Source: an uncultured bacterium (GTDB taxonomy: Bacteria; Patescibacteriota; Minisyncoccia; UBA6257; 2-01-FULL-56-20). Taken from it: 64,000 nt of DNA. This document shows, in pieces, positions 57,501 through 63,942 of the stretch. The notes beneath the pieces are model-generated. The model searched no databases and had not been told where the DNA came from. It saw only the letters and a list, made by a program, of their open reading frames with translations. The position numbers and the translations under genes are program-made. The stretch is from the NCBI GenBank assembly GCA_963718515.1, contig OY970354.1, positions 694,808 through 758,807 of the forward strand, in the 5' to 3' direction. Each line of letters starts with the position of its first letter. Position 1 is the first letter of the stretch.

Positions 57501-57562
57501 GCGTTTACCTTTTCGCCCACTCAGAGGCACGGCGAGCTATCTTGTGGGGATCGAAGCGATAA
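57501..57562. repeat. Copy A of the rpsI-3'-end-like module (coding-tail part only, no terminator part)
   Basis: gcgtttaccttttcgcccactcagaggcacggcgagc...atcgaagcgata. The reverse complement reads ...RASEWAKR-stop, mimicking the S9 C-terminus RRAPQWAKR-stop. Confidence 0.8.
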
Positions 57563-57680
57563 AGAAAAACCCCATTGAAAGCGCGGAACTTCTGTTGCCA
57601 CCAATCGCGGAAATAAAAAAGAACCCATCCACCGAAACAGACAGGTTCTTTCCTGTTGCCCGATGAATGGGTCGTTGTGG

Positions 57681-58334
57681 TCAACCGATTGCATGTATCG
57701 TCTTGCGAAAGTCTTCGGGGTTACATCCGCGAAGACACGCAAGAAGTCCAACTCCCGAATCGCGTTGGTCTTTTGTCAGGTAATCCCATGCGGCCAAATA
57801 CTCTTTGTGCCTCCGTTCAGCCTTTTGTTCGGCTTTTTCAAAAGCGTTTCTGGCCTTGGCACGTACACGCCGTTGGACAGCAAGGTCAGCGGGTTTGGCG
57901 AGTTCGTGAATGCGCATGGCATCCAAATTGCTTCTCGCCTCATCGCGCTCCTTGAACGCATCCTCGGCTAATTTGGCATATCCCACGAGAACCTCACGGA
58001 GATGCGGTGCCATTCCCTCAGCTTCCTGCGAGTCACGCGGAAAGAGGAAGATAGAAAGATGTGTCACCTTCCACCACTTACGGACAAGCTCGCGGCGAGA
58101 CTTGTCTCCCATGTCAAGTACAAGAGAACCCCCGAAGCAAAGAACCGCGCCGACGGCTGCTCCGATCCCAACAATCCAGATGATGATGATCATGATCGTT
58201 GGCAATTTATCTGGAAGTGCTAGAACAAGCATCGCGACGAAAAATGCAATGCCGAGGGTAAAAATCATAAATCCACAGAGACAAACCTGTTCGAGCAGAT
58301 AGAACGCGATGTCTTTCTTGTTCAGACGAAACAT
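57681..58334 (-). CDS. Hypothetical membrane protein with C-terminal coiled-coil (cassette 1)
   Basis: 217 aa with 2-3 TM helices, then a charged helical region. A consensus-like promoter lies upstream. Confidence 0.5.
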   Translation of the reverse strand: MFRLNKKDIAFYLLEQVCLCGFMIFTLGIAFFVAMLVLALPDKLPTIMIIIIWIVGIGAAVGAVLCFGGSLVLDMGDKSRRELVRKWWKVTHLSIFLFPRDSQEAEGMAPHLREVLVGYAKLAEDAFKERDEARSNLDAMRIHELAKPADLAVQRRVRAKARNAFEKAEQKAERRHKEYLAAWDYLTKDQRDSGVGLLACLRGCNPEDFRKTIHAIG

Positions 58335-58481
58335 ATATTGCTCCTTGTTTCAGCTCCGTTTGCGGCGGCAGAACATCTCTGGAGTTGCGCTCCGGGCGTC
58401 GGGTTTGCGGCCCTTGGCCTTTTTTGATGATTCGATCCTCGGATGAAATGCTGGATTTCCGAGAAAACTGATACTGGCTAC

Positions 58482-58510
58482 ATTCTACCTCTTGACGGAT
58501 AGATTGTCAA
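58482..58510 (-). promoter_or_regulatory. Sigma-70-like promoter TTGACA-N17-TAGAAT for 57681..58334
   Basis: On the minus strand, ttgaca (58510..58505) is followed by 17 nt and tagaat (58487..58482). Confidence 0.55.
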
Positions 58511-58520
58511 ATGCTATAAT
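58492..58520 (+). promoter_or_regulatory. Sigma-70-like promoter TTGACG-N17-TATAAT for 58556..59110, overlapping the divergent promoter
   Basis: ttgacg (58492-58497) is followed by 17 nt and tataat (58515-58520). GAGGAGG lies before the ATG at 58556. Confidence 0.6.
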
Positions 58521-58555
58521 ACCCTACGGTACCGACAACTTGTCGAGGAGGAAAA

Positions 58556-59110
58556 ATGAAAAGGCTTGTTACGCTGTTTCAAGAGAAACTGGACGTATCG
58601 GTAAAGAACGCTACTTATCGGGTGATCGGAGTCGTCGTGGTGCTAATTTGTGCCGTTGCTACCCTCGTGGCGACCATTAGCACTTTTCCATTCGCTTCCA
58701 ATCTAACCGAAAGAATTTCGCTCTTGCCCGGCAACTACACTCAGGTGGACGAAATCCGGGATGGCGATGTGATGGTGAACACGGCGCAGTTCCTACAAGT
58801 GGCCAAGGGAAATACTTCCTTCGTATCACTGGGAAATCGCGCGATCGTCTATATGACGAAAGTAGGTGGTGTATCCTATCGGCACGAAGATGCGATCGGC
58901 TGGTACTTCTCTTACTACAACACTTCATCTCACATCGAGAATGGAGTGCTGATCAGGGAAAGGGAAAGGAGCGTCGGTGAAATGATTTTTGGACATATCA
59001 TCCTCCCTCTCATGATCCTGTTCATGCTCTTGCTCACATTTGTCCAACTCGAAAGTAAGCGTCTGTCGGGCTGGGAATCCAACGCAGAATATGCATCCGT
59101 ATGGATCTGA
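58556..59110 (+). CDS. Hypothetical membrane protein (cassette 1)
   Basis: Strong RBS GAGGAGG, an N-terminal and a C-terminal TM helix, and a terminator downstream. Confidence 0.55.
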   Translation: MKRLVTLFQEKLDVSVKNATYRVIGVVVVLICAVATLVATISTFPFASNLTERISLLPGNYTQVDEIRDGDVMVNTAQFLQVAKGNTSFVSLGNRAIVYMTKVGGVSYRHEDAIGWYFSYYNTSSHIENGVLIRERERSVGEMIFGHIILPLMILFMLLLTFVQLESKRLSGWESNAEYASVWI

Positions 59111-59131
59111 AGACCGAACAAGATAAACCCA

Positions 59132-59160
59132 AAGGGACAGCAGTGATGCTGTCCCTTTTC
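59132..59160 (+). terminator. Rho-independent terminator
   Basis: aagggacagc-agtgat-gctgtccctt followed by tttc. Confidence 0.7.
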
Positions 59161-62535: not shown

Positions 62536-62556
62536 AGCTATAGCTTGCTGGGATGT

Positions 62557-62585
62557 ATTGTAAACGAAAATGTCAATATTGTCAA
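62557..62585 (-). promoter_or_regulatory. Consensus sigma-70 promoter TTGACA-N17-TACAAT driving the array on the minus strand
   Basis: On the minus strand, ttgaca (62585..62580) is followed by atattgacattttcgtt (17 nt) and tacaat (62562..62557). The first module starts ~15 nt after the predicted start (~62550). Confidence 0.65.
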
Positions 62586-62631
62586 ACTCCAATTGGGCAC
62601 ATTCAACTCTCGAGCGCGACACCTAGTCTAC

Positions 62632-62838
62632 CCAATTTCTACACACATCGCCTTTCCATACAAAAATATTTCGCGAAAGTTTTTTCGCTCGCCGAATAAT
62701 TTATATATTCAGTTCCTGCACATAAGAAAAACAGCCCGCATGATTGCTGGGCTGTTTGACTATATGCAGAATCTGTAGCGTTATCTTTTCGCCCACTCAG
62801 AGACGCGGCGGACGGTTTGGCGGGTATCGAAGGGATAG
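62632..62838. repeat. Copy C of the ~205-bp rpsI-3'-end + terminator module
   Basis: ccaatttctacacacatc...cacataagaaaaacagcccgcatgattgctgggctgtttgactatatgcagaatctgtagcgttatcttttcgcccactcagag...gaagggatag. Confidence 0.9.
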
Positions 62839-62927
62839 TTACTGATCCAGTTATGGAATCATTTATTGATAAGAAAATGGCGCCGTCGCTTTTATGCGAC
62901 GACGCCATTCGTAACTCTTTTGAATGT

Positions 62928-63320
62928 TTACTTGCTTTCAAGCTCTTTCGCTTTTTCTTTGAGCTTTTTTAGTTCCAATGCCGCATCGTTCCAAATTTCC
63001 ATCCTTTCGGCATCCCACGCCTGGTCTTTCTCGTTTGGCCTTGAACCCAATGAAAGCATCGAGATTAATGCTCCGGAGATGGAGCCACTCACGTTATACA
63101 GTCTCCGCATTATCTCGTTCTGCACTTTTTCACTGGTAGGCTCCTTGGCGGCGGCCTCCGTAATCTCTTCAACTAACCGCAGGGCTTCATCATAATCCGC
63201 CGCCGTCGGTTCGTGCCCGACCGCCTCTTTCAATTTCGCCCGCATCATATTCGCTTCTCCTTGTGCTTCTTCCAGTCCCATTTTCTCCTCCTCGGATGGC
63301 ATTGGCATACGTTCGCTCAT
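62928..63320 (-). CDS. Hypothetical acidic coiled-coil protein (cassette 3)
   Basis: 130-aa ORF between repeat copies C and D; no family motif. Confidence 0.45.
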   Translation of the reverse strand: MSERMPMPSEEEKMGLEEAQGEANMMRAKLKEAVGHEPTAADYDEALRLVEEITEAAAKEPTSEKVQNEIMRRLYNVSGSISGALISMLSLGSRPNEKDQAWDAERMEIWNDAALELKKLKEKAKELESK

Positions 63321-63420
63321 GGTTTTGGTGACGGTTTAATTAATGGACTTTTATCTACTTTAAACCCATTCTAAATATCTGTCTAGTGGTAACTTTGTAG
63401 CGGTACATTTTTCCCGCACT

Positions 63421-63535
63421 ACACATATTCAATCTCTGCACAGATACAAAACAGCCCCGATGTTCTCAAGGCTGTTTGACTATATTCAATTTTTGTAGCG
63501 TTACCTCTTGGCCCACTGCGGAGCGCGGCGTGCTT
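63421..63535. repeat. Copy D: native rpsI 3' end, stop codon and terminator hairpin (more diverged prototype of copies A-C)
   Basis: acacatattcaatctctgcacagatacaaaacagccccgatgttctcaaggctgtttgactatattcaatttttgtagcgttacctcttggcccactgcggagcgcggcg aligns with copies B/C at roughly three quarters identity by eye. Confidence 0.75.
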
Positions 63536-63942
63536 TGTTGAGGCCGTACTTCTTGCGCTCAACCATGCGGGAGTCGCGGGTGAGGAAGCCGATGGTGCGG
63601 AGGCGCGGCTTCCAGTCCGGCGTCCTTGGCGATGATCGCGCGGGAGAGGCCGAGGCGCACGGCGCCGGCCTGCGCGTGGATGCCGCCGCCGGAGACGACG
63701 ACCGTCACATCATATTCCGTGAGCTTGAGCTGCTCGAGCGGAGAGCGCGCGTCAGCCACGAGCCGCGGAAGCGTAAAATATTGCGTTGGTGTCTTGCCAT
63801 TCACCGTCATCTTGCCAGTGCCGCCTGGCATGATGCGCACGCGCGCGATCGCCGTTTTGCGGCGGCCGACGGCCTCGGTGTAGCGGCTCTTGTGCGCGGC
63901 CGGAGCCTTGTGCTCAATTTTTTCTATATCTTTTGTTGCCAT
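63501..63942 (-). CDS. rpsI: 30S ribosomal protein S9 (frame broken by a 1-nt indel near 63605)
   Basis: [12 protein letters not shown]...[21 protein letters not shown] is in ORF 63559..63942. The true C-terminus [33 protein letters not shown]-stop is in the neighbouring frame and ends at 63501. Confidence 0.9.

Follow-up and report, generated by a model that had tools for sequence, protein, structure and literature searches.

Tandem integrase-less cassettes behind rpsI in a patescibacterium: probable successive insertion at the stop codon, with a TIGR-Tas system as one cassette

Why does the end of a ribosomal protein gene recur several times in the DNA downstream of it, and what lies between the copies? 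The question is raised by a 64-kb stretch of contig OY970354.1 (the window), from an uncultured bacterium of the Patescibacteriota, in which the last codons of rpsI (ribosomal protein S9) and the DNA that follows them are found four times, as copies D (the genuine gene end), C, B and A with increasing distance from the gene. We read this repeated module on the minus strand, which is the sense strand of rpsI. Three cassettes stand in a row downstream of rpsI, numbered 3, 2 and 1 in the same direction, and none of them encodes an integrase. We consider it probable that they form a tandem array of small, integrase-less mobile cassettes that site-specific recombination inserted successively around the stop codon of rpsI. 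Cassette 2 is a complete stem-loop TIGR-Tas system, with its promoter, 22 guides, tasR and terminator. The coordinates of all features are collected in Table 1.

Chance does not account for the four repeats, which are real. An earlier sequence-only reading of this DNA had reported them, and sequence reading, repeat detection and a profile hidden Markov model (HMM) all find them in place. The profile, made from independent metagenomic copies of the module, matches the window at these four copies and nowhere else (E-values in Table 1), and shuffled sequences give 0 expected chance matches for 29-nt and 37-nt sub-patterns of the module. By repeat detection, B (59164-59354) and C (62627-62817) are 85% identical over 191 nt at a spacing of 3463; a central 107 nt is common to B, C and D at 100%, 91% and 77%; and the members of the tail family are A (57505-57561), B (59318-59374) and C (62781-62837). 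Sequence reading and repeat detection thereby bear out both the 3463-bp spacing of B and C and the 85-nt stretch with just two differences between them. Pattern matching and comparison of the copies likewise uphold the hairpin AAACAGCCC-AGCAATCATGC-GGGCTGTTTTT, identical in B and C, and the description of A as the coding tail alone, with similarity ending 3-4 nt past the stop codon. One detail fails: copies A-C were said to encode ...RASEWAKR-stop, and C encodes ...RRVSEWAKR-stop.

Could the repeats be an artefact of assembly, through the collapse or expansion of a repeat or through a chimeric join? Short-read contigs do break inside modules, and the rpsI open reading frame (ORF) of the window contains a 1-nt insertion near 63610 (window 63590-63620; ATCATCGCCAAGG vs ATCATCG-CAAA in alignment to rpsI of contigs L014 and L008), which throws it out of frame into an early stop and leaves the conserved tail in another frame. 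Such a frameshift in an essential gene suggests some sequencing error; it is probably a sequencing or assembly indel, and it could be real. The repeat copies themselves, however, are not alike (77-91%), and the DNA next to each of them is unique. L001 (ERR11630394), a short-read contig of independent origin, matches part of B, cassette 1, A and the adjoining flank at 100% identity, and contigs with several modules occur in other samples. Because L001 reproduces this segment and unrelated samples show the same architecture, we conclude that the array is not an assembly artefact, an explanation to which we give almost no credence.

The module is about 200-290 nt long and consists of three parts. 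The first, T', is a decayed rpsI tail of ~55 nt (e.g. TATCCCTTCGATACCCGCCAAACCGTCCGCCGCGTCTCTGAG) that resembles the last ~15 codons of rpsI with shared derived differences. The second, the core AGTGGGCGAAAAGGTAACGCTACA, spans the stop codon. The third, M, is a non-coding block of ~150 nt. It contains an intrinsic terminator hairpin with its T-run, then DNA rich in A and T, and a conserved distal block whose end reads ...GATGTGTGCAGAAATTGGAGA; a 19-bp inverted repeat brackets its terminator (CTACAAATTCTGCATATAG, the 19 nt right after the stop codon, and GATGTGTGCAGAAATTGGAG in the distal block). The junctions differ in the order of these parts: D reads true tail-core-M, C and B read T'-core-M, and A reads T'-core-native flank. 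In D, the block after the core is a shorter variant of M, and the same short M stands ahead of the same cassette in contig L017.

When metagenome contigs were scanned for an exact pattern that specifies 22 bases of M, 22 loci came up, of which 21 are true copies, most of them in metagenomes of peat or bog. In seven independent copies the module is joined to the canonical rpsI tail, ...RRAPQWAKR-stop, of an intact gene, while other copies follow T' arms of at least three classes. Modules recur in the same orientation within single contigs (four in L007; two each in L002, L008, L013 and L014), separated by ~0.4-6.6 kb of cargo that includes ABC transporters, a peptidase A4, a peptidoglycan-binding protein, an alpha/beta hydrolase, an isochorismatase, a class-V aminotransferase, a CobW-like GTPase, an Eco57I-type methylase, a copy of IS30 and many orphan genes. 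The contents and order of the cassettes vary. The first cassette is a different one in L008, L014, L019 and L002. Contig L017 (87-89% identical) reads rpsI-M-cassette 3-T'core and then another flank, so that cassette 3 holds the same first position there, with neither TIGR-Tas nor cassette 1. A homologue of cassette 1 (82%) comes second in L002, where an unrelated cassette of 298 aa precedes it; in L003 the homologue is internal, with a further module after it, and in the window cassette 1 is terminal. In L014, two cassettes are joined without a T'-core-M module, with a remnant of an M end between them. Repeated insertion into the 3' end of rpsI with tandem accretion, as the sequence-only reading had proposed, is thus supported by the same module bounding varied cassettes in 21 contigs, by their variable content and order, and by the attR-like structure of A.

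The IS30 copy was found in L023 (oriented 753-1822, Ga0182030_10228098) as a compact element with a transposase (NF033563, 4e-73) and inverted repeats of ~18 bp, TTCAAGCTTGAAATGCAA / TTGCAATTCAAGCTAGAA. It lies ~35 bp upstream of a T' arm and its ends are unrelated to the module; with inverted repeats of its own, it is a separate insertion sequence (IS).

How might such an array grow? A free cassette would be circular and would carry one attP-like site, T'-core-M, whose T' would be the ~55-nt arm of ancient rpsI-tail origin. Crossover within about GGTAACGC would keep rpsI whole and attach it to the M of the new cassette, the structure seen in copy D, and would place the incoming T' ahead of the DNA that previously lay downstream of rpsI. 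With the crossover at this position, internal junctions would read T'-core-M (C and B) and the oldest would read T'-core-native flank (A). Each new cassette would enter next to rpsI, which would make A the oldest junction of the array. The M terminator would insulate rpsI and every cassette, each cassette would bring its own promoter, and the recombinase would be encoded elsewhere and act in trans. We infer the circular intermediate, the position of the crossover, and the existence and kind of the recombinase.

The module copies suggest where the exchange takes place. D keeps GGGCCAAGAGG where the three other copies read GGGCGAAAAGG, and the similarity of A to the others breaks off directly behind TAA(A)CGC; these differences would confine the exchange to ≤~8 nt in the segment given above, a length that matches a recombinase overlap and is too short for RecA. 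When the module copies are compared, T' is never found fused to rpsI, as would follow from a crossover to the right of CAG|TGGGCG.

We searched for the recombinase with regex motifs, with Pfam and NCBIfam models on ~60 ORFs, and with phmmer on all ORFs using XerD and resolvase seeds. As positive controls, phmmer detected a XerD-like tyrosine recombinase directly downstream of rpsI in a Leptotrichia metagenome-assembled genome (MAG; L074 10245-11279) and in a Bacillota MAG (L043 10483-11526), which fits the known rpsI attachment site in Firmicutes (PMC4701971, PMC5090054). The sequence-only reading knew of no rpsI hotspot, but the 3' end of this gene is in fact a documented site of integration for integrative conjugative elements (ICEs) as well as integrative mobilizable ones (IMEs) in streptococci (PMC4701971, PMC5090054). 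We found no intI beside the insertion site, and ribosomal protein genes lie upstream of rpsI in L008, L014 and L022. M has no sequence similarity to the attC core site, and inspection of the core and its flanks revealed no palindrome of the dif-like kind, a 28-bp core with inverted Xer arms, used by integrative mobile elements exploiting Xer (IMEX) and dif modules. Cumulative GC skew falls steadily over 50-64 kb, and since it does not reverse there is no sign of a replication terminus in this region.

Several results weigh against site-specific insertion. Neither the cassettes nor the window with its 20 large ORFs nor any module-bearing locus yielded a tyrosine, serine or DDE recombinase, the IS30 of L023 aside; the phmmer search, which relied on single seeds and is of limited sensitivity, likewise returned none in the window or in L001-L035. 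Because none is encoded in any cassette or in the 64-kb window, a recombinase would have to act in trans. The core contains no obvious inverted-repeat recombinase site. No circular form of the TIGR-Tas cassette was observed, and no exact empty site for it was found among the related loci. The comparison with relatives that lack cassettes, suggested in the sequence-only reading, does show differences of content and order (cassette 3 alone in L017, cassette 1 in other contexts in L002 and L003), the exact empty site for cassette 2 aside. Cassette homologues diverge about as much as rpsI does (82-89%), and for this reason much of the cassette pattern could be old and vertical, with differential loss. 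The placement of the crossover depends on the two synonymous core differences of D being ancestral, and they could instead be later mutations. It may also be that T' is a relic and not a working arm. Finally, although 13 proposed long-range pairs between the arms of the inverted repeat of M are paired in 96% of cells among 15 distinct copies, most changes are one-sided, to G-U, and covariation in the same copies does not exceed that of shuffled controls, so we treat the folding of M as possible, not as shown. Scans of viral contigs with three patterns, taken from M, T' and the core, gave 0 matches, and no viral or episomal contig with the core was found.

A dedicated recombinase would not be needed in a flexible island shaped by homologous recombination, in which the T'-core-M modules are portable blocks of homology and terminators, and cassettes are exchanged, gained or lost through RecA after DNA uptake and through unequal crossing-over. 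Patescibacteria commonly carry competence genes. The failure to find a recombinase agrees with this explanation, as does the resemblance of cassette divergence to core-gene divergence; the modules are long and similar enough for RecA (the 85 nt with two differences between B and C; M at 74-90%), and the missing module of L014 suggests homology-driven or illegitimate deletions. Swaps and losses of cassettes can be explained in this way. First insertions into genomes without M are not, for there T'-core meets the flank exactly at the stop codon (A, L017, L030) with only ~6-24 nt of identity. The conservation of M exceeds what neutrality predicts and extends to an inverted repeat that has no part in termination, and T' arms are common to Parcubacteria and Saccharibacteria, lineages far too distant for homologous exchange between them. 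Nor was T' found recombined onto rpsI in any copy, despite the homology upstream of the core. We therefore regard homologous recombination as an unlikely alternative to site-specific insertion at the stop codon.

The constraint on M can be gauged in the four genomes that have a full M after rpsI, where M is 79-86% identical, third codon positions of rpsI are only 65-73% identical, and the DNA directly past M is unalignable; M is therefore constrained. T' evolves faster than M (57-81% vs 74-90% identity). A conserved block of ~150 bp bracketed by a 19-bp inverted repeat invites a comparison with miniature inverted-repeat transposable elements (MITEs) or repetitive extragenic palindromic (REP) sequences: M could be an intergenic terminator element that has spread in a variable region, and the pseudo-tails could be remnants of local duplications of the rpsI end. 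Its hairpin is a genuine terminator, as such an element would have, and in L005 what appears to be a group II intron with a GTGCG 5' end follows right behind it. M, however, always begins at one fixed base behind a stop codon of the rpsI type, and always with a tail of rpsI, true or pseudo, ahead of it. Target-site duplication is absent, and neither pattern nor profile scans of the 64-kb window found a dispersed copy of M outside the rpsI array. Variants with another proximal arm (W_D, L004) lack the inverted repeat and yet hold the same position, and lineages without M still have displaced rpsI tails. A spreading terminator element is thus an improbable source of the array. At the gathering threshold, Rfam has no match in 57-64 kb.

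Contig L005 (oriented 230-1760, Ga0181516_10005322) shows the insertion just mentioned: an ORF similar to the reverse transcriptases of group II introns follows closely on a GTGCG motif after the T-run of the terminator, and M is truncated. Some bacterial group II introns insert just downstream of terminators, and this one looks like a terminator-targeting intron of the class C type. Its position directly after the hairpin supports the view that the module hairpin is a real intrinsic terminator.

The protein of cassette 2 had been taken for an IS110-like enzyme, the only candidate integrase of the locus, with the neighbouring cassettes as its possible satellites. We identify it as TasR by an NCBIfam model (Table 1). 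Against the IS110 transposase model NF033542 it scores 43 bits at a cutoff of 140, its only Pfam match is the C-terminal Transposase_20, and the DEDD_Tnp_IS110 domain (PF01548) was not detected by Pfam. The best solved relative is TaTasR (PDB 9MTY, 8.9e-08), and the 542 homologues come mostly from Patescibacteria. The first RuvC motif reads GIRHR instead of GIDxxK and lacks the Asp, from which TasR is predicted to be catalytically inactive. This parallels the dead RuvC of TasR from the Candidate Phyla Radiation (CPR): of two stem-loop TasR proteins tested, one belongs to the CPR clade, and both are catalytically dead, RNA-guided repressors (bioRxiv 10.64898/2026.09.09.750476).

Upstream of tasR, each unit of the TIGR array consists of a stem, a spacer of ~10 nt, a hairpin, a spacer of ~9 nt and a stem, the stems being conserved and the 9-10-nt spacer pairs variable. 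Twenty of the 22 units are organized into five super-repeats of ~315 nt, each with four unit (stem) types and a conserved double hairpin (e.g. 61019-61099), and the two remaining units adjoin the promoter. The d-units of super-repeats 2 and 3 have the spacer ACTCCAATGA in common. L104 and L105, the nearest Tas loci (protein identities of 86% and 80%), also have a super-repeat of ~314 nt. We searched the window and 35 loci for targets, using 18-19-nt sequences in which the two spacers of each of the 22 units were combined in four geometries. The 44 spacers, so paired, gave one match with ≤2 mismatches, in an unrelated genome and at chance level, and nothing above chance in modules, window or related loci. 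The second cassette of L014 was considered as a TIGR homologue and rejected, the similarity being limited to the leader/promoter region.

Could TasR nevertheless be the recombinase, one that inserted its own unit with the help of RNAs from the adjacent array and mobilises its neighbours as satellites? Tas proteins are evolutionarily related to the IS110 RNA-guided recombinases (PMC12045711), and TasR is the sole nucleic-acid enzyme found in the interval. The family assignment, the undetected DEDD domain and the altered RuvC motif argue against it, as do the repressor activity and lack of cleavage of the CPR TasR tested (bioRxiv 10.64898/2026.09.09.750476) and the chance-level spacer matches. 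About 20 other cassettes with the same module have no Tas gene, and L104 and L105 have no T' or M modules. An integrase role for TasR is therefore very improbable. Rather, TIGR-Tas is cargo whose location varies: in L105, the locus lies directly 3' of a tRNA-His gene (L105 2208-2281), another classical integration site, although no repeat of the tRNA-His 3' end was found on the other side of the Tas locus.

Cassette 2 agrees with the stem-loop TIGR-Tas clade of the CPR in its Nop-type Tas protein related to IS110, its upstream stem-loop array, its two ~9-10-nt spacers per unit around a hairpin and its patescibacterial host (PMC12045711; bioRxiv 10.64898/2026.09.09.750476). It differs in that the whole system forms one cassette of an rpsI array and in the ~315-nt super-repeat of four units. 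With IS110/IS1111 elements it has in common the C-terminal Transposase_20 or Nop-like domain of Tas; those elements use one two-loop bridge RNA, whereas cassette 2 has 22 tandem guides and a TasR without a DEDD match that scores below the family cutoff, and long flanking duplications are not a feature of IS110. The TIGR-Tas papers cited here contain no description of genomic mobility of these systems (PMC12045711; bioRxiv 10.64898/2026.09.09.750476).

How far beyond this lineage does the arrangement extend? In a search with the S9 protein, with one genome per species, the closest relatives are Patescibacteria, Parcubacteria-type MAGs at 63-82% identity. M is absent from the nearest species representatives of GTDB, and the module sequence is thus restricted to one peat lineage. 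A second, displaced rpsI stop region nevertheless lies 0.1-5.5 kb downstream in five of ~20 other patescibacterial loci (L025, a complete chromosome, L027, L030, L032 and L057), compared with 0 of ~60 non-CPR loci. Displaced tails are present in the complete genome OY970126.1, and OY970175.1 and OY970382.1 have none. Between rpsI and the displaced tail are guaA, a peptidoglycan-binding protein and an AstE-like enzyme, and no recombinase is among the genes annotated there. The arm CCTAAAGTCC...ACCAAAGC...CAG|TGGGCGAAG is common to L027 (Parcubacteria), L030 (Saccharibacteria) and the peat contigs L006, L007 and L012. Since these arms resemble each other more than any real rpsI tail, they point to a common, horizontally spread arm of ancient rpsI-tail origin.

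In L032 (649/783, Saccharibacteria) and L057 (2166/2291, Paceibacteria), the second stop region is only ~125-135 nt downstream of the first. These close copies look like empty scars, comparable to the degenerate core at 63394-63416 of the window, which may itself be the scar of some previous event. In L024 (CAWHOC010000001.1, 10480-10550), the reference genome that is closest, S9 loses its C-terminal QWAKR at the point where the core would begin (...ARRAP|HASTPSL...). This truncated tail could be a recombination scar or the product of a chimeric contig; the downstream DNA looks foreign in composition and the contig may be chimeric, and we did not use it as evidence.

A broader proposal, which we offer tentatively and do not regard as the likelier outcome, is that the last five codons of rpsI serve as a widespread, integron-like capture platform. 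A putative recombinase acting in trans would recognise the ~290-nt T'-core-M site and would insert and shuffle the cassettes, these would be promoter-bearing and insulated by terminators, and the platform may serve as a vehicle for TIGR-Tas between reduced genomes.

The principle is classical: duplication of an att site at a gene 3' end, tandem accretion, and integrase-less units mobilised in trans, with integrons and tycheposons as functional analogues. Tandem accretion and cis-mobilizable elements (CIMEs) at gene 3' ends, including that of rpsI, have been described (PMC4701971, PMC5090054, PMC5704250). The ICE/IME/CIME accretions of streptococci (e.g. IMESag-rpsI) display direct repeats of a gene 3' end, an intact gene, tandem arrays, a trans recombinase for integrase-less members and even the same target (PMC4701971, PMC5090054, PMC5704250). 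In contrast, the ~20 cassettes examined here contain no integrase, excisionase or relaxase, the units measure 0.1-6.6 kb, the conserved junction module of ~290 nt has its own terminator, and the hosts are Patescibacteria. Conjugation is not known in Patescibacteria. Integron arrays resemble the rpsI arrays as rows of small recombinase-less cassettes with a conserved, potentially hairpin-forming site, one fixed site of entry and diverse, often orphan cargo. Here, however, there is no intI beside the array, a ribosomal protein gene provides the anchor with its stop codon, in place of attI, cassettes have their own promoters and terminator insulation, and the junction is unrelated to attC, with a folding that lacks covariation support. 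The tycheposons of Prochlorococcus are likewise tandem cargo elements at the 3' ends of conserved genes in streamlined genomes, some of them integrase-less; they target tRNA genes, and many encode tyrosine recombinases and replication genes, none of which occur here (bioRxiv 10.1101/2020.12.28.424599).

What is new is the host group, the lack of a cis-encoded recombinase over ~20 cassettes, the long terminator-bearing junction module, its recurrence across classes of Patescibacteria, and TIGR-Tas as a cassette. We found no description of rpsI-anchored arrays in CPR bacteria in the searchable literature. Patescibacteria have tiny genomes and few recognised mobile elements, and their acquisition of accessory genes is poorly understood. 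A fixed, reusable rpsI site that accumulates self-expressed cassettes would provide a simple route of gene gain and loss in such reduced genomes. The duplicated tail is an easy metagenome signature of the accessory gene pool (pattern [C/G]AGTGGGCGAA[AG][AC]GNTA[AG]), and the missing recombinase is a concrete search target. Recent TIGR-Tas papers ask about the natural context and spread of these systems, and here a complete one stands inside a bounded, apparently mobile unit.

The two other cassettes carry orphan genes. The 130-aa protein of cassette 3 has no Pfam or NCBIfam match. Cassette 1 has strong divergent promoters (58482-58520) and a bidirectional terminator (59131-59158). Exact-protein look-up found no match for TasR, the 130-aa protein or the frameshifted S9, and matched the 116-aa protein of the native flank to L001 alone.

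Table 1. Features of the rpsI array, with positions in the 64-kb window
Feature	Position	Strand	Evidence and remarks
rpsI (ribosomal protein S9), anchor gene	63501..63942	-	Pfam Ribosomal_S9 8.7e-23; NCBIfam PRK00132; stop codon 63501-63503
Copy D: true tail of rpsI, core and short form of M; attL-like structure	63421..63535	-	Profile E 3.5e-45; terminator hairpin ~63447-63478
Degenerate second copy of the stop-codon core (GGGAAAAATGTACCGCTACAAAG)	63394..63416	-	Repeat family D10; homologous sequence in L017
Cassette 3 cargo: 130-aa orphan gene	62928..63320	-	ORF; promoter-like site 63357-63385 (weak, promoter scan)
Copy C: internal junction	62632..62838	-	Profile E 8e-69; T' 62784-62838, core, full M 62632-62780
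Sigma-70-like promoter into the TIGR array, TTGACA-17-TACAAT, strong	62557..62585	-	11/12 matches
Stem-loop TIGR array, 22 tigRNA units	60844..62540	-	Repeat and unit analysis
tasR (437 aa)	59455..60768	-	NCBIfam NF052498 TIGR-Tas system RNA-guided endonuclease, 1.2e-45, 156 bits, cutoff 100
Terminator hairpin closing the TIGR-Tas unit	59405..59427	-	Similarity to Tas loci L104 and L105 stops here
Copy B: internal junction	59164..59374	-	Profile E 8e-66; T' 59321-59374, core, full M 59164-59317
Cassette 1 cargo	57563..59163	.	184-aa gene 58556-59110 (+); 217-aa gene 57681-58334 (-); orphans
Copy A: T' and core only, joined to native flank; attR-like terminal junction	57505..57561	-	Profile E 7e-11
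Native downstream gene (116-aa membrane protein), array end	57108..57458	-	ORF; continuity confirmed by contig L001

Elsewhere in the window, a gene at 52935-56441 (-) encodes a surface-type protein of 1168 aa with GDSL lipase, InlB B-repeat and peptidoglycan-binding domains and a long internal duplication, within which the overlapping ORFs 54872-55078 and 56033-56239 have almost identical translations. At 9714-9844 (-), beside tRNA-Glu, Rfam reports a LOOT RNA match of 50.7 bits against a gathering score of 46.4.

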